Part shown: in pieces, positions 3 through 18,901 of the stretch
Numbering within the stretch: position 1 is the stretch's first letter
How the letters are laid out: every line of letters begins with the position of its first letter
Assembly: GCA_038891615.1 (NCBI GenBank)
Contig: JAWADY010000002.1
Coordinates: 64,994 to 128,993 of the forward strand
DNA length: 64,000 bases
Reading direction: 5' to 3'
From: Candidatus Woesearchaeota archaeon
Lineage (GTDB): Archaea > Nanobdellota > Nanobdellia > Woesearchaeales > ARS49
Position numbers and translations under genes: made by a program
The notes under the pieces: generated by a model
What the model was told of the DNA's origin: nothing
What the model saw: only the letters and a program-made list of their open reading frames with translations
Database searches by the model: none

Positions 3-881
3 ATGTCAAAAAACGTCTTTGCGTTTAAGAAAGCACCGCCAGAATATCCCTACTCCCCATTCCCAAAACCGCCAATATTTCCTTCTGCACCAACATACGG
101 CTATTACGGTGATATAAGTATAGTGACTGAAAAAAGACTTTCTGCGGAGCTGAGCTCATACATAGAATCAAATATCCAAAGCTGCACTGATTGGTCAAGC
201 TTTGCACAGAAAGGGATTGATGTAAAAGTTGGTAAACCATCAGCGGATGTCCTTTTTGGAGACTCTGACACAACAGTCTCGCTTAGGTGGCGAATAGAGG
301 CAAAAAGCGGCCAGGCAGAAGCGGTCATAAACAAATTTGCAGCAAGCATTCCGGTTAGAATGAAGGTTGTACGTAACTATGCTCTCGAGATAGCCTCAAA
401 TGACACCCTTTACTATGACTATGAGCCTAGCAGTGCTCCAGCAGTCCAGGTTTTCAAAAGGGTTGATGGCAAAAGCGACATAATTCAAATCACAGATACG
501 CTTTCAAAAGTTGACACAAAACCGTTTATCTTCAGGTTTGCAAGAAAGAATAGGCCTCCTGTGCTTTTCGATTCTGATATTAAATTGCGATTTAATGAAA
601 TTTTTGCTTGCCCAGGCGATGTTATAAGTTTTGATGGCAAGACATTCAAAATAACTAAACAAAATGGTGACATTCGCTTTTCTTTTGCACCAAATGCAAC
701 AGATTTTGATGAAGATTCTAGTTTATCATTTAATGTTTCTGATAGAGGTGGTGAGCCCTTTCCTTTAAGCACAACTCAGCAAATGGCAAATATTGGTAAA
801 AGAGAACTAAGAATAGAAGTCAGTGATGGTCTTGAAAAAGATTGGTATGATGCAAGCCTGACTTTAAAAACAAAATGTTAA
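3..881 (+). CDS. 5'-truncated secreted/extracellular protein of unknown function; stop overlaps the start of the giant downstream gene (ATGTTAA)
   Basis: Open frame enters from the window edge, 292 aa, no TM in the visible part. The 7-nt overlap with the 875 ATG suggests translational coupling. No recognisable family. Confidence 0.45.
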   Translation: MSKNVFAFKKAPPEYPYSPFPKPPIFPSAPTYGYYGDISIVTEKRLSAELSSYIESNIQSCTDWSSFAQKGIDVKVGKPSADVLFGDSDTTVSLRWRIEAKSGQAEAVINKFAASIPVRMKVVRNYALEIASNDTLYYDYEPSSAPAVQVFKRVDGKSDIIQITDTLSKVDTKPFIFRFARKNRPPVLFDSDIKLRFNEIFACPGDVISFDGKTFKITKQNGDIRFSFAPNATDFDEDSSLSFNVSDRGGEPFPLSTTQQMANIGKRELRIEVSDGLEKDWYDASLTLKTKC

Positions 882-3800
882 GAAAAGAAGTTATTGGAAT
901 CTTTGTAGTGCTGTTCTTCGTAGTAATTGGAATCGCGGTCATTGCACAGGAAGAAAAAACAGGTTGTTGTTGTGATGAAAATGGAACTGCAATGGATTAC
1001 AGTCCTTTCCATACCCAAAATGAGTGCACTGATCCATTCACCATTCTTGTTCCACTTTCTTCAGAAAACATAAGCAAGTATACTCCTGACAACATCTCAA
1101 AAATATGTATAGACGCTTGTGGTGGTGCAGCCCCTAAGCCTTTACCATTGCCACTTGCTCCAAAAATAACTTTTTTTAAAGCAGAACCGTTGATGGGCCA
1201 AAAGAAATTTTTGCTCACCTGGGAGATAAATCAAACACCAAATGTCATCTATATAGACAGGTGCAAAGGAAATGACTGCACTAATTTTGGCAACATTGCA
1301 ACCTTTGCTGGAACCTCAAGGTCTTATGTCGATGATGATGCAAGCCTTGAGTGGCTAACAAATTACACCTACAGGTTGAGGATTGTCAATACAATTACAA
1401 GCCCACCACAAGAATCAAGCATGACAGCATCCTCAAGCCTTGGCGACATTGAGTGCTGGAATCGATTCGACAAAACTCCTTTCTGCATTTCAGAGTACTA
1501 CTATTGGAATGAGCCTATTCAGAGCTATCTCAAGAATTTTGGCTATTTTGGTTTCAGTTTCACTGATAATTTTGCAAGACAGGTGCGGACTGTTTTTGGA
1601 GTAACAAATCTTGACCACATAGGAAAGCTCGACTCAAGATGTCATGTGGTTGGCATAAACAGACTCAGTCAGTCTTCCTCAAGGTGCAAGAGCAACGAGA
1701 CTTGCCTTGTTGTGGATTCAAACACAATCTGCATAACCCCTTCACCTTGCGATACAAGCTTTAATGCAACCTCTGCTTCTTGTGAAAACACCCCTTCAGG
1801 TACTCCAAGCTATTGTTTCTCTGATAAGAGCCAAAGTGTTATTGAGCGCTGCTACAGTTGTGATAAAAGGATGAGCTGCTATGACTATCGTTCAAAAGAG
1901 GCCTGTGAGAGGGATGCATGCGGAATTGGAGATTGTATATGGAAGCCAACTTATGGAGCAATTGGAGTTGGAGTTTGCATCAATCCTTCTCAAAACAACT
2001 GTCTGCTTTGTGACAAGAAAACAGGAGACCTTCTTTCAGGCTTGGATTCAAAAAAATGGCCTAGTCTTTTGGCTTATAATGAGCTTTTTGACGCCTGCTC
2101 ACAGCTAAAGGCAGAAGCTCTTGGCAAATGCCTTGCCGTGACAGACCCTTCAACAGGAAAAACTTCTCCAAAGACTTGCGAACAAGCAACCTGCAGCGAT
2201 TATAAAACTCAGCAAGAATGTAATGCCGACACTTGTGGGTTGGGAATATGCAAATGGTTTGACTCACCCACCTTCCGCGGCTGTGCAAAGGATGCTGACA
2301 CCCCTCCTCAAGCCCCTGCAACAGATAGTGATGGTGATGGTATTCCTGATTGGTGGGAAATCAAGTATGGTTTGAATCCTAACAATCGTGATGATGCTGG
2401 TAGTGATTCTGATGGTGATGGCTTGAGCAATTTGGATGAATGGTTGCGTGGGACCCTTCCAAACAATCCTGATAGTGATGGTGATGGTGTCTCTGATCTT
2501 AATGATAATTGCCCTGGTACTCCTTCAAACACTTTTCAAGTTGATAGCAATGGGTGCCCTCTTCCTGTTAGTGATACCACTGATTCTGATGATGATGGTA
2601 TTCCTGATTGGTGGGAAAGAAAGTATGGTTTGAATCCTAACAATCCTGCTGATGCTGGTAGTGATTCTGATGGTGATGGCTTGAGCAATTTGGATGAATG
2701 GTTGCGTGGGACTCTTCCTAACAATCCTGATAGTGATGGTGATGGTGTTTCTGATCTTAATGATCAACATCCTGGTACTCCTTCAAACACTCAAGTTGAT
2801 AGCAATGGGCGCCCACCTCAAGGCAATGGCAAGCCGGATTGCATTGATCCAAACACAGGTGAAATAGATCCTGCGTGCGAAGCAGACAAGTGGTCACCTG
2901 AAACAGTCATTATCCCTGTGGGTGACAGAGGGGCTGTAAAATACCTATACATACAAATTACTGACCAGTTCAAAAGCACAGGTGAAAAATTAACTATTGC
3001 GCACTCTGGAACTGGAACAAAGGCAGAGTACTTTCCTAAAGGCTACAGCACTTTTCTTTGCGTTGGTAGCCTTTGCTCACCAAATGTTCGTGTGAACGCA
3101 ACTCCCTTGACTGTTGTAAATGGCTTCTTGACAATAAATGGTAAGCCTCTTGGACTGCAGCTTAAGGATGGTTCCAACATCTTAAGATTCTACTCACAAG
3201 ACCCTGCAAATAATAATGAACAAGTTAAGCAGCTAGAGGTGAATGCCTGCACAGGCTGTCAGGGACCTGCTCTCATTACTCCAATTGATATCGAAGGCGC
3301 AAGAATTGTAAATGGTGAGTATTATACAAAGCTAACACAGCCGCAAATAAAGCTATCCTTTGATGCAAAGGCAGAACTTGTTTTAAAGAGGCTTGTTTTT
3401 GGCAATTCTTTTACTGAGCTTAGCTCAAGCCCACAATCCGGCTTCAGCCAAAACTACACATTACTACCTCCTGAGCTAGCAGAAGCAAAGTATGTTCTGC
3501 AAATAAATGCTCGTGGAGAAAATGGAATCTCGAGCTCTAATACGCCTTACAGCTTCAATTTGACGATAGACAAAACCCCGCCACTCCTTTCATTCAATGT
3601 TGAACAAAACAGCATCTTAGAAAACCCAGACCAGTCTTTTGTGCTTAGCTTTAATGAGCCTGTCTTTGTTACTTCCATTTTTTTCGATGAAGAGCATGTT
3701 GCTCAAAATGGTCGCAAGTATGTTTTTACAAGAAATCTAACCTCTGAACTCAAGCAAGTGAATAGCAGCAAATATAACCTAACTGTTAATGGAATTCCTG

Positions 3801-6355
3801 ATGGGCATGTTGCGCTAAGAGTTACAGCAGAGGATTATGCCGGAAATACAATGGCTTCTGTGCTAAACTTTATTATTGACTCAACAGGCCCGGTCATTTC
3901 TCTGGCACAACCACTATTCGGAATTTCTGACAAGACACCATTTGACATTGTCGTTGAAACAGACCAGCCAGCTATCTGCAGATATTCAACAATTCAAAAT
4001 GTTGACACTGCGAGCATAAGCTATGATGCAATGGCAAAGTTCTACATACCTGAAAAACAAACCGCACAGCACATCATACAAGGCTTTGACGAGCTCACAG
4101 GAAAGCCAGAAAACACGCCCTGGAGGTTCTATGTTGTTTGCAAGGATGGCAAGCAACGCCAGTCTAACGAAACCTTCTGGCTGTCCGTTGATTCTGCTCC
4201 TCCAAAAATAACAGCTGCTTATGCAGAACCAAATCCAATCGTTGAGTACACAGACAGTGAGCTGCTAACAACACTGAAAGTCTCAACAGAACGCAGCTCC
4301 TTCTGCAGTTACAGCACAACAACCACGAGCTTTAGCCCTGAAAATGGTTTTGAAGGGACAGGCATAACTCCAAGGCAAGCGCACAATGCTGTGGTTAAAA
4401 TAACCACTTCTCCGACAACTTATAACATCGCTTGCATTTCACCAACCGATTATGGCAAAGCTGCGCCAAGAACAGCAACAGCAACAATAAAAATCACTGT
4501 TGACGTTGCAGCACCACTAACCATTTCCTGCAGCTATTGCCCTTCATTCTGGAATTCTACCACAAAAAACATATACCTGACCACAAACAAGCGCGCGCAA
4601 TGCTTCTGGACACTTGACAAGACAACCACTTCTTTTGGTACAGTTGGATATGAGCACAGCACCACTCTGAAAGTGCCATCTCTTGGCGAGAAAAAAGTGC
4701 TCTTTAGCTGCAATGCAGGCGCCCAAAGTGCAACCCTTGAGTATTCATTTCTTGTAGACAACAGCCCTCCTGTAATGCTCTATGTTAGTGATAACTCAAG
4801 CCTTAAAGAAGATACAGAGCATAGCTATTTCACAGATAGGTTAAGGGCAGCATGGCTCGGGCAGGATAATGAAAGTGGAATAACACGGTATTATTACTCT
4901 TTAATCGAAAAGGCAAACAACGCTGTTGTGATAAATTGTTCACCTGGCTCTCAACAAAACAATTGCCGATTCTCAACAGTACTTGATGGAAATTTCTTTG
5001 ACATTACGCAGGACCATAATGGAAAGTCGCTCAATTTAACAGACGGCTTTAGTTATTTCTTGAAGGTTTGGCCCCTAAATAGGGTTGGTCTTCTTGGAAA
5101 TCCAATGGACTCGGATGGAGTTGTAATAAACAAAAGCAAAAAGCCAGCTCACTGCAGCGATGGAATAACAAATGAAGGCGAATCAGGGCAGGACTGTGGT
5201 GGAGAGTGCGAGCCTTGTCCTGATGGTCAGCCTTGTAGGTCTGATTCGGACTGTCTCTCAAAAACCTGTATAGAAGGTTCGTGCAAGGCTCCGAGCTGTA
5301 CAGATTTAAGAAAGAATGGTAATGAAAGCTCAATCGATTGTGGTGGGAGCTGTCCAACAAAGTGCGAAGCTGGTAAAAGTTGTAACACTGACAGCGATTG
5401 CAAAACAGGACTAAGCTGTATATCTGGTGCATGCGCAGAACCAACAGCTTGCGAGAATGGTATACTTGATGGGCTTGAAACAGACATTGACTGCGGAAGG
5501 GTTTGTCCAACAAAATGCGCAGCTGGAAAGGGCTGTCTTGATAATAAAGATTGCGCTGATGGGCTATATTGTGTTAGTGGTGTTTGTTCTTCAACAACTC
5601 CAACCGCTGATTCTGATGGTGATGGTGTCACTAATGATCTTGACCAGTGCCCAAACACTCCGAAAGGTGAAAAAGTAGATAAAAACGGTTGTTCAGCAAG
5701 CCAGCGTGACACCGATGGAGATGGCATGAATGATGCTTGGGAGATACGCTATGGCTTTGATCCTGAGAATCCTGCTGATGCTTATACAGATGTCGATGCT
5801 GATGGCCTTAGTAATCTTGAGGAATTCAAGTTAGGAACTGATCCAAGAAACCCAGATACTGATGGTGATGGTTGGAGTGATGGGGCTGAGTTCAAGGCAG
5901 GAACAGACCCTCTAGACCCTGCCTCAAAGCCATCCGCCCCTATTGTGAGAGCTTTGCCATGGCTGTTGCTTGTTGCAATCCTTGCCATAGCCGGTTACGC
6001 AGCTTACAAGTACAGGAAGCAAATTGCTGCAATTTTTGTAAGGAAAAAGGTAATTCCTTTGCCAAAGCCGCCTGTGGTGTGGAGACCGCCACCAAGGCCT
6101 GTCCAAAGAGTTGTGCGTGTTCCAACAAGAGCAGAGTTAATCATTGAACAGCTTAGAAAGATTGCCCGAGCTACAAAGGCTGAAGAAGAGGAATACATTC
6201 CTGTAGAAGAGCTTGCCAGAAGGGCAGCTGCGCTAGAGCCAACAGAAGAAGTACTTAAGCATCTAAAGGCAGCAGTAAGAAAAAGCCCTGAGTTTGCAAG
6301 GGCTGCAGCTGCCCAGCCAAAGCTCAGAGCGATGCTCAAGAAAAAATCAAAATGA
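875..6355 (+). CDS. Giant (1826 aa) membrane-anchored surface protein/adhesin with thrombospondin type-3-like Ca-binding repeats (DxDxDG), Cys-rich modules, a C-terminal TM helix and a roughly 130-aa charged cytoplasmic tail
   Basis: N-terminal hydrophobic signal/anchor (IGIFVVLFFVVIGIAVIA). Repeated DSDGDG(I/L/V)xD...WE..YGLNPNN motifs. Four roughly 43-aa 6-Cys modules (CxDGxxNGxExxxDCGGxCxxCxxGxxCxxDxDC...C..GxC). TM ALPWLLLVAILAIAGYAAY near the C-terminus, followed by a Pro-rich then helical K/E-rich tail. Confidence 0.8.
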   Translation: MLRKEVIGIFVVLFFVVIGIAVIAQEEKTGCCCDENGTAMDYSPFHTQNECTDPFTILVPLSSENISKYTPDNISKICIDACGGAAPKPLPLPLAPKITFFKAEPLMGQKKFLLTWEINQTPNVIYIDRCKGNDCTNFGNIATFAGTSRSYVDDDASLEWLTNYTYRLRIVNTITSPPQESSMTASSSLGDIECWNRFDKTPFCISEYYYWNEPIQSYLKNFGYFGFSFTDNFARQVRTVFGVTNLDHIGKLDSRCHVVGINRLSQSSSRCKSNETCLVVDSNTICITPSPCDTSFNATSASCENTPSGTPSYCFSDKSQSVIERCYSCDKRMSCYDYRSKEACERDACGIGDCIWKPTYGAIGVGVCINPSQNNCLLCDKKTGDLLSGLDSKKWPSLLAYNELFDACSQLKAEALGKCLAVTDPSTGKTSPKTCEQATCSDYKTQQECNADTCGLGICKWFDSPTFRGCAKDADTPPQAPATDSDGDGIPDWWEIKYGLNPNNRDDAGSDSDGDGLSNLDEWLRGTLPNNPDSDGDGVSDLNDNCPGTPSNTFQVDSNGCPLPVSDTTDSDDDGIPDWWERKYGLNPNNPADAGSDSDGDGLSNLDEWLRGTLPNNPDSDGDGVSDLNDQHPGTPSNTQVDSNGRPPQGNGKPDCIDPNTGEIDPACEADKWSPETVIIPVGDRGAVKYLYIQITDQFKSTGEKLTIAHSGTGTKAEYFPKGYSTFLCVGSLCSPNVRVNATPLTVVNGFLTINGKPLGLQLKDGSNILRFYSQDPANNNEQVKQLEVNACTGCQGPALITPIDIEGARIVNGEYYTKLTQPQIKLSFDAKAELVLKRLVFGNSFTELSSSPQSGFSQNYTLLPPELAEAKYVLQINARGENGISSSNTPYSFNLTIDKTPPLLSFNVEQNSILENPDQSFVLSFNEPVFVTSIFFDEEHVAQNGRKYVFTRNLTSELKQVNSSKYNLTVNGIPDGHVALRVTAEDYAGNTMASVLNFIIDSTGPVISLAQPLFGISDKTPFDIVVETDQPAICRYSTIQNVDTASISYDAMAKFYIPEKQTAQHIIQGFDELTGKPENTPWRFYVVCKDGKQRQSNETFWLSVDSAPPKITAAYAEPNPIVEYTDSELLTTLKVSTERSSFCSYSTTTTSFSPENGFEGTGITPRQAHNAVVKITTSPTTYNIACISPTDYGKAAPRTATATIKITVDVAAPLTISCSYCPSFWNSTTKNIYLTTNKRAQCFWTLDKTTTSFGTVGYEHSTTLKVPSLGEKKVLFSCNAGAQSATLEYSFLVDNSPPVMLYVSDNSSLKEDTEHSYFTDRLRAAWLGQDNESGITRYYYSLIEKANNAVVINCSPGSQQNNCRFSTVLDGNFFDITQDHNGKSLNLTDGFSYFLKVWPLNRVGLLGNPMDSDGVVINKSKKPAHCSDGITNEGESGQDCGGECEPCPDGQPCRSDSDCLSKTCIEGSCKAPSCTDLRKNGNESSIDCGGSCPTKCEAGKSCNTDSDCKTGLSCISGACAEPTACENGILDGLETDIDCGRVCPTKCAAGKGCLDNKDCADGLYCVSGVCSSTTPTADSDGDGVTNDLDQCPNTPKGEKVDKNGCSASQRDTDGDGMNDAWEIRYGFDPENPADAYTDVDADGLSNLEEFKLGTDPRNPDTDGDGWSDGAEFKAGTDPLDPASKPSAPIVRALPWLLLVAILAIAGYAAYKYRKQIAAIFVRKKVIPLPKPPVVWRPPPRPVQRVVRVPTRAELIIEQLRKIARATKAEEEEYIPVEELARRAAALEPTEEVLKHLKAAVRKSPEFARAAAAQPKLRAMLKKKSK
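2324..2830 (+). repeat. Near-perfect tandem duplication (2 x 258 bp) inside the giant surface-protein gene, encoding two almost identical 86-aa TSP3-like units
   Basis: DNA units starting at about 2324 and about 2582 are nearly identical (gattctgatggtgatggcttgagcaatttggatgaatggttgcgtggga... in both). The protein units differ at only a few residues. Confidence 0.85.
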
Positions 6356-6852
6356 GACTTGGCCAAATAGTTGGGCAAATATTTCTTTTCTTGTTGGCAA
6401 CAATTGTTTTTGTTTTTATAGTTGTTTATGGCTATCGCGCAATAGGCAACCTTGTTGCAAAAGGTGAGCAAGCAGACCTAGTGCGATTCAACAGCGAGCT
6501 CAGTTCCGCAGTTAGTGCTATATCCCTTGACTATGGCAGCGTGCGTTGCCTAGAGCTCAGCCTTCCAAAAAGATATAGAACCTTTTGTTTTGTCGGGCAG
6601 GAGCCTGACATAGGCGCACTTTCCTTGGTCAGCCCATTAATTGCAAGTGCTGTCCAGTCAGGGATTAAGCAAAATGTTTTTTTAATCCCCCCTTCACCGC
6701 TTCAACTATATCTAGAAAAGGCAACGACAAAAGCAGAGGGAGGATTTTTTTGCATAAATACAAGCGGACCAACAAATCGCTTGCTACTCAGGCTTGAAGG
6801 TGGCGCAGGAGGAATTGCAGAGCTACAAAAATGGCAAGGAGCAAGCTGTTAA
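6352..6852 (+). CDS. Pilin-like protein with class III (type IV pilin-type) signal peptide
   Basis: N-terminus MRLG|QIVGQIFLFLLATIVFVFIVVYG: short basic segment, G at -1, Q at +1, then a roughly 20-aa hydrophobic helix. Lies directly downstream of the giant gene. Confidence 0.55.
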   Translation: MRLGQIVGQIFLFLLATIVFVFIVVYGYRAIGNLVAKGEQADLVRFNSELSSAVSAISLDYGSVRCLELSLPKRYRTFCFVGQEPDIGALSLVSPLIASAVQSGIKQNVFLIPPSPLQLYLEKATTKAEGGFFCINTSGPTNRLLLRLEGGAGGIAELQKWQGASC

Positions 6853-7820
6853 TTCCAAAGCACAGAAAAGGCCAGATAGAAGCGCCAGTAAGTTGGATAT
6901 TCATACTTATTGCAGGAGCTGTAATCCTTCTTTTTTTCTTTTCAACAACCATTAAGTTGCGTGACATTGCAAAACAAAAGCTTTCAATAACCCTTTTGTC
7001 AAACTTAGATGCACTCATCTCTAGCTCATCCGTTGCAAAAGGTACAAGCCAGCTGCTGCCGATTTATGACCAGCAACTTGTTTTTGAATGTACACAGGCT
7101 TGTCTTTGCGAGCTTTCAGTCCTTGGCGCAAAAAAGCCATTTAAAGACAGGCTGATTTTTGCTCAGCAAAAGGTTTTTGGAAGAAATGCGCTATTTTGGG
7201 CTCTTGACTGGAAGGAGCCATTCAGGATTGCTAATTTTCTTTACATAACAGACAGCTCAAGCAAATATTGGTTGGTTGGGGATTCGAGCAGCGAACCACT
7301 TAAGACAATAAAGTTCCTCCTTCCTAAGAATCTTAGTGCGGAGTTCGTAGACTCCACCCAAAACATCAAGCCAGGAAATTTCAAGAAAAGCAGGATTGTT
7401 CTTTTTGACAAAGCACTGGATGAAAGCCTTGCAGATAGTTTTCCCAAAGCATCTGAGCTAACATTACTTGTTGTCAACACCCAGAACAAAGAGCTTAAGT
7501 GGTACAAGAGAAAAGGTAGCAAGCTGGAAGTGCTGTCAAATGAAGGGGCGGATAACTACAAAAGCATTCCCCATCTTTTGGGAGCAATTTTTAGTGACGA
7601 GCCGCAGCTTTACGCCTGCCAACAAGCAGCTTCTGAGGACAGGAAAGCGGCCATAAAAGAAATCTATGTTGCACGTGTGCAAAAATTGATGCAAATTGTG
7701 CCAGAAGAACGTGGTTGCAGCGCGCTTTACGAAGAGACGTTCAAAAACATTAACGCTCCTGAGGCGCTTGAGGAGATTAATGAGGAATTGCTAAAAAAGA
7801 GTTGTCCAACAATATACTAA
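6831..7820 (+). CDS. Pilin-like protein with class III signal peptide (329 aa)
   Basis: N-terminus ...KHRKG|QIEAPVSWIFILIAGAVILLFFF. Overlaps the upstream gene by 22 nt. Confidence 0.55.
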   Translation: MARSKLLIPKHRKGQIEAPVSWIFILIAGAVILLFFFSTTIKLRDIAKQKLSITLLSNLDALISSSSVAKGTSQLLPIYDQQLVFECTQACLCELSVLGAKKPFKDRLIFAQQKVFGRNALFWALDWKEPFRIANFLYITDSSSKYWLVGDSSSEPLKTIKFLLPKNLSAEFVDSTQNIKPGNFKKSRIVLFDKALDESLADSFPKASELTLLVVNTQNKELKWYKRKGSKLEVLSNEGADNYKSIPHLLGAIFSDEPQLYACQQAASEDRKAAIKEIYVARVQKLMQIVPEERGCSALYEETFKNINAPEALEEINEELLKKSCPTIY

Positions 7821-7821
7821 A

Positions 7822-8352
7822 ATGGCAAACAATGCATCTCCAAGCAAAAAGGCTCAGATAAAGATGTTTGAGAATATCGCTGTCCTCGTGATATTCTTTT
7901 TTCTTCTGGCTTTTGGTACAAGCTTTTACTTTACACTTCAAAAAAGTTCCCTTCAGCGTGAAATGGAACGCATTGCGCAGCTTGGAAACATTCAGCAGGC
8001 GCTTAGGCTTACATTCTTACCAGAGCTTGACTGCTCATTTGCTGCTGTACAAACTGAAAATTGTTTTGACAGGCTTAAGTTTGATGCTCTTGCAGATCAG
8101 CTTAAACCAGGTAGCCAGCGATGGCTTGAGTACTCTGCAATCCTTGGTTTTACTAGTATAAAACTAAAGACTGTTTATTCCAGCCTCTCTCCCCCGCCTG
8201 AAGAGAAACTTCTGTACGAAAGAAAGCTGAACGCAACTGCAATTCGCACAGAGATTCCTGTCTTGATTTGTGAAAACGGTTGCGACCCGCTAAATCAAAG
8301 CTATTCCTTCGGCATCCTTGAGGTGACAAGCTATGTTAGAAGGGCAACCTGA
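7822..8352 (+). CDS. Pilin-like protein with class III signal peptide (176 aa)
   Basis: N-terminus ...SKKA|QIKMFENIAVLVIFFFLLAFG. Start lies 2 nt after the upstream stop. Confidence 0.55.
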   Translation: MANNASPSKKAQIKMFENIAVLVIFFFLLAFGTSFYFTLQKSSLQREMERIAQLGNIQQALRLTFLPELDCSFAAVQTENCFDRLKFDALADQLKPGSQRWLEYSAILGFTSIKLKTVYSSLSPPPEEKLLYERKLNATAIRTEIPVLICENGCDPLNQSYSFGILEVTSYVRRAT

Positions 8353-8854
8353 TGGCATTGCTGTGTTGAAGGGATTAAAGAGAGCAAAAGGCGGGCAAAT
8401 GGAAATAATTGGTCTAACAATCATCATTCTTCTTGTTATAATTGGGGTGCTTTTTGGAATACAGTTTGTGCTCAAGGCAAAGCCGCCCACAATTGGACGA
8501 GAGTTTAGGGAATCGCAGTACGCAGCCAACTTCCTAAGCACTCTTACAGGTACAACAAGCGCATGTAATGGTTTGAGCATCACACAACTTTTACAGAACT
8601 GCGTGACAAGGACAGGGATTGACTGTCCATCAGGAAAGGGTGCTTGTGAGGAGGTTGAGGCTCTTATAGAAACAATCCTTGATAAAACAATTGGCAAGTC
8701 GGGACAAAACAGAGCATACCAACTTATGGTAAAAGGCAGCAACATTGACATTACTAAGTCTAATCGGGGAGGATGTCCGGGCGAAAAAGAGGTTGCAGAA
8801 CACACACTTCCAACAAGAGCTGGAGTAGTTTCTATACGCCTCGAGTTGTGCTAA
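8333..8854 (+). CDS. Pilin-like protein with class III signal peptide (173 aa)
   Basis: GAGGTGA Shine-Dalgarno 8 nt upstream of the ATG. N-terminus ...KRAKGG|QMEIIGLTIIILLVIIGVLFG. C-terminal part has 4 Cys. Confidence 0.5.
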   Translation: MLEGQPDGIAVLKGLKRAKGGQMEIIGLTIIILLVIIGVLFGIQFVLKAKPPTIGREFRESQYAANFLSTLTGTTSACNGLSITQLLQNCVTRTGIDCPSGKGACEEVEALIETILDKTIGKSGQNRAYQLMVKGSNIDITKSNRGGCPGEKEVAEHTLPTRAGVVSIRLELC

Positions 8855-8856
8855 AA

Positions 8857-10827
8857 CTATTTGCTAAAAGGATTTCTCATTTGCTTTGCTACCCAGACTG
8901 GGCTAAAATCTTCATAATCATTATCAGTAAGCTGCTCGAGCTTATCCTTTTCAATGTTGTAAACAAAGATTTCGCAATCTCTGTCTTTTTGTTTCTGTCC
9001 AAAACGAAACCAAGGGCAAGCAGAAAAGGCAATGCCTTTTGAGTCTTGCGACCAAGCAATGTTGTCCTCATTTACAAAAAAATTGTTTGGAATGCTAACT
9101 TTTTTGATGCTTAGTTTTGGCCAATCCGCTATATTGACAATGGTTACAATACTGCTCCCCTTATACCTTATTGCAAAATGTTTCAAATCTGGAGAGTTAT
9201 ACATTGCTAATGCCTGGTCTGGAAGTTTTGTCACAAATTTTGGCTTGTCCACACCGTTCTTACAAGATTCTTTTCTTTTTTTCTGGCAAGAGGCTAAGTC
9301 ATAAAGGGTGGCTTTCTCGAGTGCTAGAAAGTAAAGAAGGTTTTGGCTTTCACCTTTTGGATGATAAGGACTGGCTGCGAGGCTAAAGAACAAGCCAGGC
9401 TTTGCAAAAGTCAGTGCAGTAACATAATATCCCTTTTTTTCAAAAATCTTAAGTTTGATTGGGCTTTCTGATCCAAAGATTTTATAAGCATATATCTTGC
9501 CCTTCTTCTCATTGTTGGCATAAACGAGCCAGTTAAAATCAAACCACTCAAAGGCTTCCCACTCTGATTTGTCGTCGTACCCTGTTGATAAATTCTTTAT
9601 TTTGTTCTCTTCCGTCTTTAAAAGGGGAGCGAGCCTGATAGTCTTCCAGGACTTTTCTGCAACGCATCCACATTGTGGTGAGATCTTTATTTTGTGATAA
9701 AAGGATAACCCAGAACTTTCAGCAACATCCCCAAGCTTTGGAAAGAAGTAATGTAGTTTGTTGTCTATCACCACACCAACAGTTTCTCCATCGCTGCTTT
9801 TTATTAGGTTTTTGGCTTCCTTTTTTTTAAACACAACCACATTATGCGTTTCCTTTAATGGTGACCGTGGATAAACAAAGTTTATTCCGAAGTTGTCATC
9901 TAATCGTGAAATAAAGTATATTTTCTCATCAGTGACCAATGAAGAAAGCCAGATGAAGAATGAGGCTGTTGTGACAAACGCCGACCCTAAAAACCATTTC
10001 CTGTTTTTGCGCCACCAAAGATACCTGCACGCCTTTTTAGCGCTCCATCTTTTCTTTAGATTTGTTTGAAGAAAGCCAGAAATAAGTTTGCGAAGTGGAG
10101 CTTTTTTAAGTCGTTCATATTCTCCAGAAATTATTTTTTCTCGCAACCTTTCACGCTCAGCATCCTCAAAAGGAAAGCTACCAGTTATAAGCTTGTACAG
10201 TGCAACGCCTGCCGCCCAACTATCACTTTGTTGCGATGGCATAAAGCCTTTTAGTAGTTCTGGCGCACGATAGAGCAAGCTACCATAGCAAGGGCCGTAG
10301 TGTAGCTCCTTGCTGTTCGATAGTCCGAAGTCAACAATTTTTATCTTTCCTTCAGAAAGAATGAGGTTTTCAAGGCTCAGGTCACCATGTGTAACACCTC
10401 TTGAGTGCAAAAAGTCAAGTCCTTTACAAATCTGTTCCGCGCATTCAATGAGTTGCTTTTCATCGAGTTTGCCTGCAACCTCGCTCAGCTTTCTGCCTTC
10501 CACATACTCTTCAACAATAAATGGCAGGCCAGTCTTTTCGTCTATGTTAACAAAGTAGATTTTAGCAATATGTTCATGGCCTTTGCCGCGCTCCTCACGC
10601 AACTTTGTAAGAATTTTTGCCTCGCGCTCAAATGTGCTTTCAATGCTTACATTCCTATAAGCTGGAAATGAGCGCGAATGTTTCAGAATTTTTAGTGCAA
10701 CTGTTATGCCTTGTTGAGTATCATAAGCCTTCCAAACTTCTTTAAAAGCGCCGCCACCAATCTTTTCAATGAGTCTAAACTTACCGTTATTAAAAAAAGC
10801 ATTATCCTTAAATTCTTCTTCAGCCAT
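8857..10827 (-). CDS. Eukaryotic-like Ser/Thr protein kinase fused to a TM helix and a C-terminal PD40/TolB-like beta-propeller domain
   Basis: Kinase subdomains G-x-G-x-x-F-x-V (GGGAFKEVW), VALK, HGDLSLENLIL, DFG, APE. Internal hydrophobic helix (FVTTASFFIWLSSLV). C-terminal WSQDSKGIAFSA-type PD40 repeats. Confidence 0.8.
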   Translation of the reverse strand: MAEEEFKDNAFFNNGKFRLIEKIGGGAFKEVWKAYDTQQGITVALKILKHSRSFPAYRNVSIESTFEREAKILTKLREERGKGHEHIAKIYFVNIDEKTGLPFIVEEYVEGRKLSEVAGKLDEKQLIECAEQICKGLDFLHSRGVTHGDLSLENLILSEGKIKIVDFGLSNSKELHYGPCYGSLLYRAPELLKGFMPSQQSDSWAAGVALYKLITGSFPFEDAERERLREKIISGEYERLKKAPLRKLISGFLQTNLKKRWSAKKACRYLWWRKNRKWFLGSAFVTTASFFIWLSSLVTDEKIYFISRLDDNFGINFVYPRSPLKETHNVVVFKKKEAKNLIKSSDGETVGVVIDNKLHYFFPKLGDVAESSGLSFYHKIKISPQCGCVAEKSWKTIRLAPLLKTEENKIKNLSTGYDDKSEWEAFEWFDFNWLVYANNEKKGKIYAYKIFGSESPIKLKIFEKKGYYVTALTFAKPGLFFSLAASPYHPKGESQNLLYFLALEKATLYDLASCQKKRKESCKNGVDKPKFVTKLPDQALAMYNSPDLKHFAIRYKGSSIVTIVNIADWPKLSIKKVSIPNNFFVNEDNIAWSQDSKGIAFSACPWFRFGQKQKDRDCEIFVYNIEKDKLEQLTDNDYEDFSPVWVAKQMRNPFSK

Positions 10828-10878: not shown

Positions 10879-11763
10879 TTATCTTGTTTTCTGGATAACA
10901 GATGGTAAAGCAAGCGCAGGAAGCTGTATGCTCAAGTCGACTATAGAAGCAAGGTGAATGTTTTTCCAGCCGTAACGACGTATTTCCTCAAAAATTCTCG
11001 AAGCTTCGGTTGCCGTTTCCTGTTTTGCATCGAAGACAAATCTGTAGCAAGCGTCAAAAAGCTTGGCAGCCTTTTCATATTGTTTTACAATCTCCTGTTC
11101 AGGAACCGCGCGCTGCTTGACTATCTCTGCAGCAAGATACTTGCACTCGTCACCAATTCTTTCCACACTCCAGACAATGACTGCCTTACGCATAGCCTCT
11201 AGGTGTTCTGATATGACATTTTTTGCAAGATACCTCATGCAGTAATGTGCAAGCCTATTCACATCAATATCGCGCTGCTCTAGATGTTCAAGAGCAGTGT
11301 AATCCCAATTTCGAATAGCTTCTACCGAATCCTCAAGCATTCCTTTTACAAGAAGAAACAACCTCCGATAAAGTGCTGGAAATTCATCTTTTATCTGACC
11401 AGCAACATCACGCAAAATGCAATAGTTGCTCCTTTGTTCAACAGTCTCAAAACCAATTAGCTCAATGAGGGCTTTTTTGACGCGCTGAGGAGTTTCTGCT
11501 TCGAAGTTTGTGATTTTTATTTCATCATAGCCATCCTCATAAAGCCTGACAATAAGCCTTGGCAAGAGGACTCCTGCCTCAGGCGCACTTATTTCTTTGC
11601 TTTTGAAGACCTTTTGAGTGCTTGTTGGAGAAAGCGAAATAAAACCTGGTTGTTCTGACATTTCAATCTCATCTCCTTTCTTTATTCCATACTTTCTTGC
11701 CCATTTCGCAGGAAGACTTACCACAAGCGTTTGCTTGGAAAGCTGAATGACCTTTCTTCTCAT
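10879..11763 (-). CDS. Archaeal-type PhoU-family regulator with N-terminal AbrB/SpoVT-like domain
   Basis: N-terminus VIQLSKQTLVVSLPAKWARKYGIKKGDEIE (AbrB swapped-hairpin signature). PhoU hallmark ERIGDECKYLAAEI plus a second helical repeat. Confidence 0.7.
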   Translation of the reverse strand: MRRKVIQLSKQTLVVSLPAKWARKYGIKKGDEIEMSEQPGFISLSPTSTQKVFKSKEISAPEAGVLLPRLIVRLYEDGYDEIKITNFEAETPQRVKKALIELIGFETVEQRSNYCILRDVAGQIKDEFPALYRRLFLLVKGMLEDSVEAIRNWDYTALEHLEQRDIDVNRLAHYCMRYLAKNVISEHLEAMRKAVIVWSVERIGDECKYLAAEIVKQRAVPEQEIVKQYEKAAKLFDACYRFVFDAKQETATEASRIFEEIRRYGWKNIHLASIVDLSIQLPALALPSVIQKTR

Positions 11764-11910
11764 AATCCTTTGAAATGGTGCTTTGTATATAAAGTTTTCT
11801 ATAGGTATATAATTAAATTTTTATTATATATTTTAAGATAACTTATATATTTTAAGCATAAAATATATACTTTTGTTAATGCACTCACCTAAAAAAAGGA
11901 GGTGAGAAAG
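11764..11910. promoter_or_regulatory. AT-rich divergent promoter region between the phoU-like and lrp-like genes, with several TATA-like elements and a 13-bp direct repeat tatatattttaag (11825-11837, 11844-11856)
   Basis: Extremely AT-rich 147-bp spacer. TATA-like tatataaag / aaaatatatac. GGAGGTGA Shine-Dalgarno at 11898-11905 ahead of ATG 11911. Confidence 0.45.
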
Positions 11911-12393
11911 ATGTCTGACTTTCAAAAAAAGGATTTGGTAATAATAGCCCATCTCAGGCAGAATGCGCGGATGAAGCTAACAGCAATGTCAAGAAAAACA
12001 GCACTCCCTGTCTCAACAATTTATGACAGGTTACAACTTCATGAAGGAAAGACAATCCTAAAGCATTCGTCTCTCATTGACTTTTCAAGACTTGGCTTTA
12101 GTGCAAGAGTGAATGTTCTCTTCAAACTTGGAAAAACTGATAAACAGGAATTTGTAGCATTCCTATCAAAACATCAGAATGTCAACAGCCTTTACAGGAT
12201 TAATAATGGTTTTGATTTCCTTGCAGAGTGCATTTTTAAGAACATACGAGAACTAGAAGACTTTTTCGAACAACTTGATGCAAGGTTTGACATAAAGCAT
12301 AAAGAGGTTTACCATGTTATTGACGAGCTAAAGCGTGAAGCCTTTTTATCAGACCCTCAATTGATTGAGCTTGCAGGAATTGAAGCAGCCTAA
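11911..12393 (+). CDS. Lrp/AsnC-family transcriptional regulator
   Basis: N-terminal HTH (KKDLVIIAHLRQNARMKLTAMSRKTALPVSTIYDRLQ) followed by a RAM/ACT-like C-terminal domain. About 160 aa, typical size. Shine-Dalgarno GGAGGTGA 5 nt upstream. Confidence 0.75.
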   Translation: MSDFQKKDLVIIAHLRQNARMKLTAMSRKTALPVSTIYDRLQLHEGKTILKHSSLIDFSRLGFSARVNVLFKLGKTDKQEFVAFLSKHQNVNSLYRINNGFDFLAECIFKNIRELEDFFEQLDARFDIKHKEVYHVIDELKREAFLSDPQLIELAGIEAA

Positions 12394-12543: not shown

Positions 12544-12798
12544 ATGTCAAAAGGTCAAGGCATTTCAATTAATGTTATCATAATAGCTGCGATTGCACTG
12601 CTTGTTCTTGTTGTTCTTTCTGTTATGTTCATAGGCAGGATAGGACTCTTTGGAGTTAAGAGTGTTTCTTGCACAGAACAGGGAGGAACATGTTCTGTTG
12701 ATGTCTGCCCAGCAGGGACAAGGGAGTACACACCTTGGAGGTGCCCTGATACTCCTGAGGGGGCAAAGCAGCGCTGCTGCGTGGCAATAGGGGTGTAA
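12544..12798 (+). CDS. Small Cys-rich pilin-like protein (84 aa), class III signal peptide
   Basis: MSKGQG|ISINVIIIAAIALLVLVVLSVMFIG. C-terminal 45 aa contain 7 Cys. Paralogous to the next two genes. Confidence 0.65.
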   Translation: MSKGQGISINVIIIAAIALLVLVVLSVMFIGRIGLFGVKSVSCTEQGGTCSVDVCPAGTREYTPWRCPDTPEGAKQRCCVAIGV

Positions 12799-12809
12799 GT
12801 GAATTTTCA

Positions 12810-13079
12810 ATGGCAAAAGCGCAAGGGCTGCCAATAAACACAATCATTATCGTTGCGCTAGCACTTGTTGTTCTTTTAGTCATTGCAGCCATTTTTACTG
12901 GTCGTATACAGCTTTTTGGAAGAGCGCTAAGCAACTGCCCAAAAGGAGAGGGGAAGTGGTGCACAGACAACCCTTCGGATTGCGCAGCTGGCAACGCAGC
13001 AGCAAGTCCGCTAAAAAATTGCAACGAAGATGCTGACCCTGAACCAGAAGGGAGCTATTGTTGCATACCATTGGCATGA
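12810..13079 (+). CDS. Small Cys-rich pilin-like protein (89 aa), paralog of 12544
   Basis: MAKAQG|LPINTIIIVALALVVLLVIAAIFTG. The N-terminal 30 aa are almost identical to the upstream gene. C-terminal Cys-rich segment. Confidence 0.65.
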   Translation: MAKAQGLPINTIIIVALALVVLLVIAAIFTGRIQLFGRALSNCPKGEGKWCTDNPSDCAAGNAAASPLKNCNEDADPEPEGSYCCIPLA

Positions 13080-13366
13080 GAATGGGCAAAATGAGCGGAA
13101 AAAAGGGTGCTGAAGCCATTTGGTACATAATCGCGCTTGTCATTGGGCTAATAGTTCTTGTTGTGCTGGTAGCATTATTTACAGGAAAGGTAAAGCTGTT
13201 TGGCAAGGCAGGAGAAGAAATCGAAAAAGGTGTTCGTGGAAATCTTTGTTTTGAGCAGGGTTTTTGTGAAGCGGGCACTGCTTGTCCTCCTGGTTCAACA
13301 GCAATCCCGCGCCCTGCTGCTGGCTGGACAGATTGCACAGGGATTTGTTGCAAGCAAGTTGGATAA
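13076..13366 (+). CDS. Small Cys-rich pilin-like protein (about 96 aa), paralog
   Basis: ATG overlaps the upstream TGA (cATGA). MRMGKMSGKKG|AEAIWYIIALVIGLIVLVVLVALFTG. C-terminal Cys-rich. Confidence 0.6.
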   Translation: MRMGKMSGKKGAEAIWYIIALVIGLIVLVVLVALFTGKVKLFGKAGEEIEKGVRGNLCFEQGFCEAGTACPPGSTAIPRPAAGWTDCTGICCKQVG

Positions 13367-13508
13367 AGTTTTTATACGCAAGAGCCACTTGATTTTTTAT
13401 GCACAAAAGAGGCGTTGAAAAAAGCACTTTGTTATACCTCATCCTAATCCTTATCTTTCTTGCGCTTGCAGCCTATATTCTTGTGAGAATTGCTGGGAGG
13501 ATTTTTGG

Positions 13509-14225
13509 ATGAGCCTGCTCATTGTCAGAAGGAAGGGAATAACAGAAACAGGATTAGTGGCAATAATCCTTGTCCTTGCCTCTGGCATTGTTCTTGGAGC
13601 TCTTGTCTATCAGTTTACTGTTAAGGGGAAGCAGGTTGGCTCTATCGAGCTTTGCAGACAGAATGTGCTAACTGCTAGCAAAGTTGTAGCGCTTGGCAAA
13701 GCAGATATTTGGCCAATCACCAACTGCTTTACAGAAGACCTTGGCAAACTTCCAGAAAAAGAAGAAGAAGCCATTACTCTGATTGCCGAGGGTATTAGGA
13801 AGTGCTGGTACATGTGGGGCGAAGGAAAGCTAACTCCATGGAGCTCTACATGGCTATCAAGAAACATCATGTGTCATGTTTGTACGATGTTTGAGCCAAG
13901 CGCAGAAGTGAGTATTGAAAAGCTTCATGGTTGGATGAGGACTCACAACATTCCTGGCAAAGAATTAACCTACTATGACTTTTTGAAAGAAGGCTACATC
14001 CCTTTCATCTATCCAGCACTTGAAGAAGAAGCCAAAGCCAAAAAAGTTGACCTCACAAAAGGAATGAAATGGGCTGTCTTTTATGCCTATGGAACGCGCG
14101 CGGATTGGCTAAGATTTCCCCTCATTGGTGGACTTGTGCTTGAAGAACCAAAACAAGGCGTTGCCTTCCTGCCGACAAATGAACTCGGAGGCATATGTAC
14201 ATATACTACGATAAAACTCAAATGA
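13509..14225 (+). CDS. Pilin-like protein (238 aa) with class III signal peptide and a Cys-containing globular domain
   Basis: MSLLIVRRKG|ITETGLVAIILVLASGIVLGALVY. Shares CW..WGEGKL...CHVC motifs with the next gene, so the two are paralogs. Confidence 0.6.
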   Translation: MSLLIVRRKGITETGLVAIILVLASGIVLGALVYQFTVKGKQVGSIELCRQNVLTASKVVALGKADIWPITNCFTEDLGKLPEKEEEAITLIAEGIRKCWYMWGEGKLTPWSSTWLSRNIMCHVCTMFEPSAEVSIEKLHGWMRTHNIPGKELTYYDFLKEGYIPFIYPALEEEAKAKKVDLTKGMKWAVFYAYGTRADWLRFPLIGGLVLEEPKQGVAFLPTNELGGICTYTTIKLK

Positions 14226-15145
14226 AAAGGGCGCAAGTAACAACACAGACACTCTTGGTAGTGCTCGTGCTTTTACTCGTAGCAGCTGTCATCTTTATTT
14301 CTTTTCAGACAAGACTCTTTGGCTTAGCAGAAGCCAAAAGTGCAAAGGATGTTTGCAAAACTTCTGTCTATGCCAATGCGCTGCTTGGAAGAAGTGTTGG
14401 AATCTTTTCTTCGGATATAAAATGTCCAACTCAGTATCTTCAGATAGACAATAGTGATGTTGCACATGCAAAGTTTGAGATTGCAAAAGCTCTGTCAGAT
14501 TGTTGGGAACAATTTGGAGAAGGCAGGCTTGAGCTTTTTTCTGGAGAAGGTGTTTTTTGTTCCGTATGTCATTTGATAACTTTTAAGCACAAAGAAAAAG
14601 CAATAAGCGGGCTTTTAGACTATCTTGCAACTAACAAAAAACCCCTTACTGACAAAAGCTATCTTGATTATCTAACAAGCTATCACACTTCAGGAAGCGA
14701 GGTTCTTAAGGCATATGCAGCTGAAAAGCTCCCGCCTGACATTCTTGACCCATCGCGAGGCAACACCTATGCAACAATCTTCTACTATGTCAAGGGTAAA
14801 GACCATGTGAAGGATGTTATTGAAAGAGCCCAAGCAGCAGCACCTGGCATTGGGCTTGAAGCACTTGGTATCGGATTGATAAAGGCAGGCAGTGCAACAG
14901 CTGGCTTGATTTCAGCAACCGGCATTGGTGCGCCTCTAGGTGTAGTTGTTGCAAAGGTCTCAACAATTGTCGGCGGAGTTTTGATTGTTGGCGGAGCAGG
15001 CTATGCCCTCCTCGCTGGTTGGTTCGGCGGAGTCCCTGTAGAATTCCTCTCACAAGTACGCCTCGAGCCTTACAACGAGCAAACGCTTAAAAACCTCGGA
15101 TGCCAAATCCTGCCTGCAGCTGAAAAAGCAGAGGTTGGAAGGTGA
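14222..15145 (+). CDS. Pilin-like protein (about 307 aa), paralog of 13509, with a C-terminal Gly/Ala-rich hydrophobic segment
   Basis: Start ATG overlaps the upstream stop (aATGA). MKRA|QVTTQTLLVVLVLLLVAAVIFISF. Motifs CWEQFGEGRL / CSVCHL match the upstream paralog. Confidence 0.6.
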   Translation: MKRAQVTTQTLLVVLVLLLVAAVIFISFQTRLFGLAEAKSAKDVCKTSVYANALLGRSVGIFSSDIKCPTQYLQIDNSDVAHAKFEIAKALSDCWEQFGEGRLELFSGEGVFCSVCHLITFKHKEKAISGLLDYLATNKKPLTDKSYLDYLTSYHTSGSEVLKAYAAEKLPPDILDPSRGNTYATIFYYVKGKDHVKDVIERAQAAAPGIGLEALGIGLIKAGSATAGLISATGIGAPLGVVVAKVSTIVGGVLIVGGAGYALLAGWFGGVPVEFLSQVRLEPYNEQTLKNLGCQILPAAEKAEVGR

Positions 15146-15279
15146 TGAAAAAAGGCATATCCCGCGAGGCATTTGTTTACATACTCTTGGCACTTATTGC
15201 AATCCTCATTGGAGTAATCTTGATAATTTTTTGGGGAGGCGGGGCAGAAAAGGTCCTTAAGTCTCTTGGTTTGGGATAG
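15145..15279 (+). CDS. Mini pilin-like protein (44 aa), essentially only a class III signal peptide plus TM helix
   Basis: Absent from the ORF track (<60 aa). TGATG overlap with the upstream stop. MKKG|ISREAFVYILLALIAILIGVILIIFWGGG. Confidence 0.4.
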   Translation: MKKGISREAFVYILLALIAILIGVILIIFWGGGAEKVLKSLGLG

Positions 15280-15284
15280 CTCAA

Positions 15285-15641
15285 ATGGACAAAAAAGCTG
15301 TTGCAATAGAAACAATAGTCATCCTTCTCCTTGCACTTGTTGCTCTCCTTTTCTTTACAGTCCTTGGAGGAAAGCAGCTTCAATTGGGCAAGAAAATAAG
15401 CTTTTTCATGCCGGGCTGCCCAAAGGGTGTTTTAATAACCACAGAATGTCCATGTGATGGCCAAAAGATAAGTTCAGGTTATTGCTGTGATTTTGGACCA
15501 AGCCAAAAGCCTTGCTTTTGCGTAGAGCGAAATGTTAATAAGTGCGAGGATTACAAAAAGCAAGAGGATTGTGTAAGCAATCCTTGCCAAGTTCAAACTG
15601 CTTGCACCTTTGAACAAGGTGTTTGCAAAAGGGCTGGTTAA
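15285..15641 (+). CDS. Pilin-like protein (118 aa) with an extremely Cys-rich C-terminal domain
   Basis: MDKKA|VAIETIVILLLALVALLFFTVLGG. 16 Cys in the last 80 aa (CPKG...CPCDG...YCCDFG...CFCVERN...). Confidence 0.6.
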   Translation: MDKKAVAIETIVILLLALVALLFFTVLGGKQLQLGKKISFFMPGCPKGVLITTECPCDGQKISSGYCCDFGPSQKPCFCVERNVNKCEDYKKQEDCVSNPCQVQTACTFEQGVCKRAG

Positions 15642-15645
15642 ATAA

Positions 15646-16071
15646 ATGGCAAAAAAAGGGGTAAGTGGAATACAGGTCGTCATAGCACTTTTGATTGGCA
15701 TCATAGTGCTCTATGTTGTTGTGGCTTTTATGCAAGCACAGTTCAAGAAGGCTGGAAAGAGTATCGAGGAAATAACTCCTTCCACAATCAGCTTTGCGCT
15801 GCAAGGCTGCAGGCTCCAAGCCGCACGAGGTTTTTCTGATGCAGATAAGGATGGATATCCCGACTTTTGTGATGTCTGCGAAGGCGGTGATGACGGAAAG
15901 CACAGCGATGCTGACTGGGTTCCAGATGATTGTGATGCGCATGAAAAAACAAAAGGGCTTCCTGCAAAGGAATGTGGTTGTGAAAAGCCAGAAATGGATT
16001 CTGAAGGCAGGCTGATAAAGAGCTGTGGGAGGCTTCTTTCAATCGAGCCATTTAAGTGCGCGAAAAAATGA
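15646..16071 (+). CDS. Pilin-like protein (141 aa) with Asp/Cys-rich (Ca-binding-like) C-terminal domain
   Basis: MAKKG|VSGIQVVIALLIGIIVLYVVVAF. C-terminus: DADKDGYPDFCDVCEGGDDGKHSDADWVPDDCD. Confidence 0.6.
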   Translation: MAKKGVSGIQVVIALLIGIIVLYVVVAFMQAQFKKAGKSIEEITPSTISFALQGCRLQAARGFSDADKDGYPDFCDVCEGGDDGKHSDADWVPDDCDAHEKTKGLPAKECGCEKPEMDSEGRLIKSCGRLLSIEPFKCAKK

Positions 16072-16088
16072 ATTTGGTAAAATGAAAA

Positions 16089-18900: not shown

Positions 18901-18901
18901 A

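Follow-up and report, generated by a model that had tools for sequence, protein, structure and literature searches.

The stretch of DNA analysed here (the window; 64,000 nucleotides (nt) of contig JAWADY010000002.1 from a Candidatus Woesearchaeota archaeon, positions 64,994 to 128,993) carries, directly downstream of a gene for a giant surface protein, four consecutive genes for pilin-like proteins, designated A to D. Comparison with related loci revealed that this arrangement recurs across genomes and that it splits cleanly into a core trio, B-C-D, and a giant-specific partner, A. The trio is also kept where the giant gene is missing, close to genes for small pilins, whereas A is found only together with the giant. 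This distribution suggests that B, C and D belong with filament genes and A with the giant. The genes concerned are the following (plus strand; a slash marks the putative cleavage site).

875-6355, plus strand: giant surface protein, 1826 amino acids (aa); Pfam TSP3_bac (8.1e-21) and Big_13 (1.7e-6)
6352-6852, plus strand: pilin-like protein A, 166 aa; class III-like signal, MRLG/QIVGQIF...; invariant Cys79 and Cys134
6831-7820, plus strand: pilin-like protein B, 329 aa; ...HRKG/QIEAPVSWIFILIAGAVILLFFF, signal HRKG/QIE; four invariant Cys
7822-8352, plus strand: pilin-like protein C, 176 aa; ...SKKA/QIKMFENIAVLVIFFFLL, signal SKKA/QIKMFE
8333-8854, plus strand: pilin-like protein D, 173 aa; ...AKGG/QMEIIGLTIIILLVIIGVLFG, signal AKGG/QMEIIG

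Gene order and co-occurrence

The earlier note on this DNA had described four open reading frames (ORFs) beginning with MRLG/Q, RKG/Q, KKA/Q and KGG/Q motifs plus a hydrophobic helix, the first of them starting just before the stop codon of the giant gene. All four are present, each with about 20 hydrophobic residues, and the stop codon of the giant gene (TGA, 6353-6355) and the start codon of A (ATG, 6352-6354) indeed share an ATGA, that is, a 4-nt overlap. The further claim that the ORFs overlap one another by 2-22 nt holds for A and B (22 nt) and for C and D (20 nt), but not for B and C, since B stops at 7820 and C starts at 7822, leaving a 1-nt gap. A Shine-Dalgarno-like GAGGTGA is located 7 nt 5' of the ATG of D (8333).

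Among the 137 window ORFs with 80 aa or more, 23 matched a loose regular expression for class III signals. Of these, 16 fall into two blocks, A-D with four and the region 12544-19870 with 12, so that their clustering is not a matter of chance; the other seven are shadow ORFs, ordinary membrane proteins or cases in which the motif is distant from the N-terminus. To follow the four genes beyond the window, we built local hidden Markov models (HMMs) for A-D and ran them over more than 80 fetched related loci. Orthologs of A-D were detected in 59-86 other loci, mostly with E-values of 1e-20 to 1e-120, and this, together with confident AlphaFold2 models of A and B, establishes that A-D are real genes.

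A, B, C and D follow one another colinearly in 59 of the 83 unique related loci, most of the others being cut by contig ends. In 55 of the 64 loci that have enough upstream DNA for testing, a gene on the same strand that stops shortly before the module encodes a protein of 1000 aa or more (up to 3124 aa). Thus, the arrangement of the giant followed by A-B-C-D, which the earlier note had proposed to look for in related genomes, recurs widely. The exact ATGA overlap between the giant gene and A was found in 29 loci; ORFs in the related loci were called from the first start codon after a stop, which makes starts and overlaps there approximate. The frequent overlap of the start of A with the stop of the giant gene suggests that translation of A may be coupled to that of the giant gene. 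A and a giant occur together in 54 loci, A without a giant in none, and nine loci have neither. Of these nine, six retain B-C-D, and the sequence of the remaining three breaks off after B or C. A small pilin gene (KG/QGLSLN...; small pilins there have 80-130 aa) lies about 100 nt downstream of D in five of the six loci with B-C-D only.

Two further sets of pilin-like genes flank the module, one on each side.

3-881, plus strand: C-terminal 292 of the 395 aa of a fifth pilin-like protein ('E' family); full gene, L001:2864-4051
12544-13366, plus strand: three small candidate major pilins of 84, 89 and 91 aa; MSKG/QGISINVIIIAAIALLVLVVL, MAKA/QGLPINTIIIVALALVVLLVI and ...GKKG/AEAIWYIIALVIGLIVLVVL

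The gene of the fifth protein starts before the window, and its N-terminus reads MVGIKISKKG/QLTVAIILGLGIL (also MVGIKISKKG/QLTVAIILGLGILIVVAF). In 35 loci, orthologs of this family immediately precede the giant gene and keep the motif ...[KRN][AG]/Q[IL]T; no Pfam or NCBIfam match was obtained for the fifth protein. In 54-55 loci, homologs of the 84- and 89-aa small pilins are encoded on the strand of B, at a distance of 2-10 kb downstream of it.

Records of metagenome-assembled genomes in the third party annotation section that contain the module (L013, L015, L017, L019 and others) are often titled 'uncultured Methanosarcinales archaeon', and a 2-kb contig with the module (L080) is titled 'uncultured Rhodobacter sp.'. 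Such titles appear to be placeholders or mistaken assignments of taxonomy, or to reflect contaminated bins.

Signals, families and predicted structures of A-D

All four families have a prepilin-type signal, [KR][KR][GAS]/Q, followed by about 20 hydrophobic residues. The motif is kept as follows, with positions counted from 69-85 orthologs per family.

Family A: [KR][KR][AGS]/Q..GQ.F (Q..GQ.F.F in the orthologs); motif in 69 of 70 orthologs; Gly, Ala or Ser at -1 in 69 of 69
Family B: [KR][KR][GA]/Q.E..F.W.F.LIAGAVIL; motif in 85 of 86; Gly or Ala at -1 in 84 of 85; near-invariant helix W[IV][FY][IV]LIAGAVIL.FF
Family C (detected in 79 loci): [KR][KR][AGS]/Q[IVM][KQ]MxE[TS]; motif in 77 of 79; Gln at +1 and Glu at +6 each in 77 of 77
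Family D: [KR][KR][GSA]/QMEIxGL; motif in 69 of 74; Gln at +1, Glu at +3 and Gly at +6 each in 68 of 69

The N-terminal Glu is thus located at +3 in D, at +6 in C and at +2/+3 in B, and there is none in A. Gln at +1 is common to A-D, the fifth upstream family and the small downstream pilins. In addition, the alignments of all four families contain invariant cysteines in the head, and such conserved pairs fit extracellular heads.

Beyond the signal the families are different. According to hhalign, they have only the N-terminal segment in common, as is the case with pilins, and the possibility that A, C and D are paralogs was rejected for anything outside the signal segment. C produced a marginal hit to the NCBIfam model NF053670 (BasB; E-value 0.032, 14.2 bits against a cutoff of 230), which covers the N-terminal helix alone and does not place C in the Bas family. 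On sequence grounds, each of A-D, none of which had a significant match in Pfam or NCBIfam, founds a distinct family of its own that is spread lineage-wide. The protein collection searched contains 52 homologs of B and 25 of A, each of them from Woesearchaeota or Nanoarchaeota, and relatives of B occur in 147 species-level genomes. A word-index homolog search with D recovered only D itself, and the orthologs of D were collected through synteny and the local HMM.

The AlphaFold2 model of A (predicted local distance difference test score, pLDDT, 94.8) consists of a continuous helix of 58 residues (2-59) and a compact head in which six strands are combined with two short helices. In the model of B (pLDDT 92.2), a disordered leader precedes a helix of 49 residues (20-68) and a larger, beta-rich head with alpha/beta and helical parts. 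Both models display the 'lollipop' architecture of pilins, a helix with a head on it. We conclude that A-D are proteins of new families with class III signals and pilin architecture, a conclusion based on signal and helix and not on homology of the head fold.

The giant protein

The giant protein begins with a Sec-type signal, with cleavage at about VIA/QEE, followed by a Cys-rich N-terminal region. Its ectodomain contains TSP3 calcium-binding repeats, immunoglobulin (Ig)-like domains (Big_13) and Cys-rich CGGxC modules, and it ends in a transmembrane (TM) helix at about 1688-1712 and a Lys/Glu/Pro-rich cytoplasmic tail of about 115-120 aa. In the window protein, the tail region (5940-6355, residues ~1690-1826) has 18% Lys. 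The giants of all 51 other loci align to the window protein, with two conserved cores, the Cys-rich residues 100-480 and residues 900-1680 with the Ig-like domains, CGGxC modules and TSP3 repeats. Orthologs carry signals of the signal peptidase I (SPase I) type, and a C-terminal TM helix with a tail of 118-256 aa is present in 50 of the upstream giants. The tails of the orthologs are rich in Lys, Glu and Leu; a motif, F.[KRQ]L[KREQ], occurs in 35 of 51 tails and in none of the 16 ectodomains inspected. Its recurrence suggests that the tail may carry a conserved cytoplasmic binding motif. Searches of Pfam and NCBIfam detected no PilY1, DUF2341 or beta-propeller domain in the giant, and otherwise returned TSP3, Big_13 and repeat-driven models. 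By its topology, the giant is a type I membrane-anchored envelope protein rich in calcium-binding repeats and Ig-like domains, probably an adhesin or an S-layer (surface layer)-like protein.

We also considered other assignments for the giant. A class III signal was rejected, because the site is of the SPase I-like A-x-A type and any putative class III site would have Lys at -1. A sortase-type C-terminal signal was likewise rejected, since a tail of 118-256 aa far exceeds those of sorting signals. The NCBIfam model 'Amuc_1099 family pilus-like system protein' matched the giant with 59.6 bits (cutoff 50), but the match comes from TSP3 repeats (four stretches, the best at 488-534) and is likely a repeat-driven false membership; we did not count it as a link to pili. 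Certain genomes encode the giant in two successive ORFs (L010:123-9447, also L035; L067, L048), for example, one of 2054 aa without a TM helix followed by one of 1051 aa with a TM helix and tail, which may represent either a gene split or an assembly frameshift.

Possible roles of the pilin-like proteins and the giant

In the reading that we favour, and to which we give roughly an even chance, B, C and D are core minor pilins, A is an adaptor specific for the giant, and the giant is anchored in the envelope. A-D are probably inserted in the membrane with the head outside. A prepilin peptidase of the EppA/PibD type would cut after [KR][KR][GAS] and leave Gln at +1 in all five pilin-like proteins, which would then be held by the hydrophobic N-terminal helix. 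B, C and D, as the invariant core, are most likely minor pilins that would form an initiation or tip complex and enter the filament. The small pilins (84-91 aa) of the downstream genes would make up the thin filament itself, and its assembly would be powered by a T2SSE-family ATPase and the adjoining membrane protein, encoded some 30 kb away.

40483-42780, minus strand: ATPase of the type II/IV secretion family, candidate pilus motor, 765 aa; T2SSE PF00437, 1.5e-12
38265-40454, minus strand: polytopic membrane protein, candidate FlaJ/TadC-like platform, 729 aa; eight TM-like segments, adjoins the ATPase

The 729-aa protein has no Pfam match, and we infer its role as a platform from its adjacency to the ATPase. 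A would most likely serve as a pilin-like adaptor in contact with both the pilin complex and the giant, and the fifth upstream family may share this role. As for the giant, it probably sits at or beside the base of the pilus and is not cargo on the fibre tip; there it would act as an adhesin or an S-layer-like element.

Several observations weigh against this reading. Neither Pfam nor NCBIfam nor the PDB sequences contain a known pilin family that matches A-D, and PDB profile searches with all four families returned TM-helix noise alone. Foldseek searches with the heads of A and B found no significant similarity to solved pilins. Hence, of the pilin fold that the earlier note had suggested looking for by structure prediction, the long N-terminal helix and the beta-containing head are there in both modelled proteins, but the heads are unlike any solved pilin. 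Although the signals of B and C in the window are canonical, that of A is atypical in its Leu at -2 (MRLG/Q), and position -2 of D is Gly (KGG/Q). Among the scanned window proteins there is no Peptidase_A24 (prepilin peptidase), and none of the more than 80 loci has an ATPase or platform gene within 10 kb of the module. Finally, the giant is followed directly by B, without A, in locus L048 and probably also in L063, L026, L040 and L092.

Part of this evidence would also suit a scenario where A-D are not pilins but type II membrane proteins with uncleaved signal anchors, acting as chaperones, glycosylation or folding factors for the giant. The absence of pilin similarity at the level of family or fold, the n-region of A, which in the window genome is only MRL, and the failure to see a peptidase gene in the window all speak for it. 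However, invariance of a small residue at -1 and of Gln at +1, together with a fixed Glu or Gly, across about 70 genomes is more than a plain anchor requires; the same motif is common to the adjacent 84-91-aa pilin-type proteins, and B-C-D occur also without the giant gene. Given that the invariant -1 and +1 positions are common to the small pilin-type genes, this is the least likely of the rival explanations, and we consider it highly improbable. A model close to that of the earlier note, a PilY1-like tip adhesin, supposes that the four minor pilins, besides priming a pilus, bear the 1826-aa protein at the pilus tip once its ectodomain has been released. The gene layout is alike, with four minor-pilin-like genes beside one large non-pilin surface protein, and the large member B (329 aa) recalls large minor pilins of the GspK/PilX type. 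Moreover, a precedent exists in bacteria, FimU-PilVWX carrying PilY1 in Pseudomonas (PMC5979040), and PilY-like adhesins have been proposed in archaea (PMC4858521; preprint 10.64898/2026.04.22.720090). Yet 50 of the upstream giants end in a TM helix and a tail of 118-256 aa, which extraction by the fibre would drag across the membrane, and the giant of the window shows none of the PilY1, DUF2341 or beta-propeller domains mentioned above. Thus, the coupling of a putative adhesin to minor-pilin-like proteins put forward in the earlier note stands inasmuch as the genes are linked and A is tied to the giant, whereas display on the fibre tip is made unlikely by the TM helix and cytoplasmic tail, and we regard the tip-adhesin model as quite unlikely overall.

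Two other possibilities keep the giant in the membrane. In one of them, no long filament is made, and the pilin-like proteins constitute a membrane-retained pseudopilus or anchor, a stub or periplasmic scaffold that would position, stabilise or erect the giant; it would be comparable to FlaF/FlaG, which dock the archaellum to the S-layer, or to BasABC, which organise the Sulfolobus bindosome. We think this rather unlikely. In the other, A-D and the fifth protein would form with the giant an as yet undescribed display apparatus derived from type IV filaments, in which the subunits bundle with or dock onto the transmembrane giant adhesin and its tail (F.KL+) couples the host-contact structure to the pilus motor or to signalling. 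Such a host-attachment organelle of Woesearchaeales would be mechanistically distinct from tip-adhesin pili, archaella and the bindosome; we mention it as a tentative possibility that is probably not correct in this form.

Comparison with known systems

Proteins such as FlaF/FlaG and BasABC either attach the machinery of a type IV filament to the S-layer or arrange large proteins of the cell surface. They share with A-D the pilin-like character and the hydrophobic helix at the N-terminus, and they remain at the envelope.

Type IV pilus loci of archaea that combine a number of rapidly evolving minor pilins with large surface proteins are already known. The pilins of Methanococcus maripaludis processed by EppA have Gln at +1 and Glu nearby, with a major pilin of 74 aa (PMC3875500). 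Like the proteins described here, those of its Epd pili (minor EpdA-C, MMP1283; major MMP1685) have a short basic signal ending in Gly or Ala, Gln at +1 and Glu near the N-terminus; the minor pilins are multiple and the major pilin is very small (74 aa, against 84-91 aa in the present case), the pilin genes lie apart from those of the ATPase and platform, and large adhesin-like proteins are encoded in the locus (PMC3875500; preprint 10.64898/2026.04.22.720090). In contrast, A-D have no match to PF04021 (DUF361/Class_IIIsignal) at E<=1, the Glu of B, C and D is not at +5, and A lacks it. The heads belong to unrelated families, the large partner is here a C-terminally anchored type I protein, and the lineage is that of DPANN archaea.

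Thermoproteales (clade 4G) and halobacterial type IV pilus loci encode fast-evolving, Cys-rich putative minor pilins together with a large protein with a C-terminal TM helix that was read as S-layer-like (Makarova et al. 2016; PMC4858521). Large proteins of this kind in other archaeal type IV pilus loci have been read as adhesin- or S-layer-like (PMC4858521; preprint 10.64898/2026.04.22.720090). The combination of multiple fast-evolving Cys-rich minor pilins with a large C-terminal-TM protein is the same in Woesearchaeota. The families and the phylum are different, however; here the giant has orthologs throughout the order, the stop of its gene in many cases overlaps the start of one specific pilin-like gene, and the ATPase and platform are not in the locus.

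Likeness to the bacterial systems FimU-PilVWX-PilY1 and GspH-I-J-K of the type II secretion system consists in four different pilin-like genes, one of them markedly larger, next to a large non-pilin surface protein, with only the N-terminal helix in common and the Glu present in three of the four proteins and missing in one. No similarity of sequence or fold to these systems was detected, and the archaeal signal is of another type. Moreover, unlike PilY1, the giant has no beta-propeller and is membrane-anchored with a tail, and there is no outer membrane or secretin. The resemblance to bacterial minor pilins with PilY1 is an analogy confined to gene layout.

We found no earlier description of this Woesearchaeota module in the literature. 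The new elements are five unannotated pilin-like families confined to Woesearchaeales/Nanoarchaeia, a giant type I membrane protein that has orthologs throughout the order and is often encoded with a stop-start overlap with one pilin-like gene, and the clean split between the core trio B-C-D and A as the partner of the giant. They are part of a conserved surface-structure supercluster of 15-25 kb, wholly annotated as 'hypothetical', in about 150 species-level genomes. The five families add to the type IV filament superfamily, the modelled heads (A and B) matching no solved structure. Woesearchaeales are abundant, uncultured DPANN archaea with small genomes that are thought to depend on other cells. 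Judged from sequence, the giant together with A-D is a good candidate for the cell-attachment apparatus of this lineage. If the link between A and the giant is physical, A would be the first pilin-like protein dedicated to a membrane-spanning giant adhesin. The B-C-D trio on the one hand and the pair of A and the giant on the other offer concrete targets for metaproteomics, cryo-electron tomography and heterologous cleavage assays.

Neighbouring genes

The surroundings of the module in the window are typically archaeal, with RadA, RPA, RFC, archaeal-type aminoacyl-tRNA synthetases and an AbrB-PhoU regulator. The following genes lie between A-D and the end of the other block of pilin-like genes.

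8857-10827, minus strand: Ser/Thr protein kinase, 656 aa; Pkinase, 6.3e-43
10879-11763, minus strand: AbrB/SpoVT-PhoU regulator; Pfam PhoU, 9.7e-8, and MazE/AbrB, 4.1e-7
11902-12393, plus strand: AsnC/Lrp-type regulator (PF01037), directly 5' of the small pilin genes
13509-19870, plus strand: nine proteins with class III-like signals (238, 316, 118, 141, 286, 280, 192, 191 and 322 aa), the first block of the earlier note

In this protein, the kinase domain is followed by a hydrophobic segment and a C-terminal region of about 350 aa without a Pfam match. The kinase gene and D are convergent, with 2 nt between the stop codons. Because a kinase occupies the same position in just three other loci, it is probably a lineage-specific insertion. 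The AbrB-PhoU and AsnC genes are kept between the A-D module and the small pilins, in the same position and orientation, in 24 and 25 other loci, respectively, and this recurrence makes them candidate regulators of the pilin operon. Pfam searches with seven of the nine first-block proteins (16942-17784 included) and NCBIfam and Pfam searches with the three small pilins produced nothing significant. We considered the A-D block as a duplicate of the first block and rejected this possibility, as all-versus-all BLAST revealed N-terminal similarity only. B as a paralog of the 280-aa first-block protein was rejected as well (hhalign probability 0.3%).

The proteins encoded farther upstream of the fifth pilin-like gene comprise one of 343 aa with a Sec signal, a secreted one of 734 aa, a pilin-like one of 143 aa and one of 510 aa whose N-terminus is lipoprotein-like; still farther upstream are housekeeping genes. 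The 510-aa (L093:3375-4907) and 734-aa (L093:5531-7735) proteins have Ig-like repeats in common and a near-identical Cys-rich C-terminal domain of about 190 aa (...CCGGDDAGEYYNDPYY...CCPENECWDGTRCV...), and the 143-aa pilin-like gene (KKRG/AKIS) lies between them.

Three other regions of the window deserve mention. At 50075-52739 (minus strand) there are two adjacent class II aminoacyl-tRNA synthetase paralogs of 436 and 435 aa, each with tRNA-synt_2 and an OB anticodon-binding domain, presumably a pair of the AspRS/AsnRS type. Six consecutive ORFs without a Pfam match occupy 53344-56806 (plus strand); three of them appear to be paralogs that encode small polytopic membrane proteins (219, 191 and 187 aa), and the three that come next encode soluble proteins (203, 166 and 179 aa). 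An Rfam search identified an 84-nt tRNA at 56876-56959 (plus strand; 57.7 bits) that was missed by ARAGORN and possibly contains an intron. It overlaps the listed GTG start (56915) of a thymidylate kinase ORF, whose Pfam match begins at residue 60, so that the true start is probably downstream.

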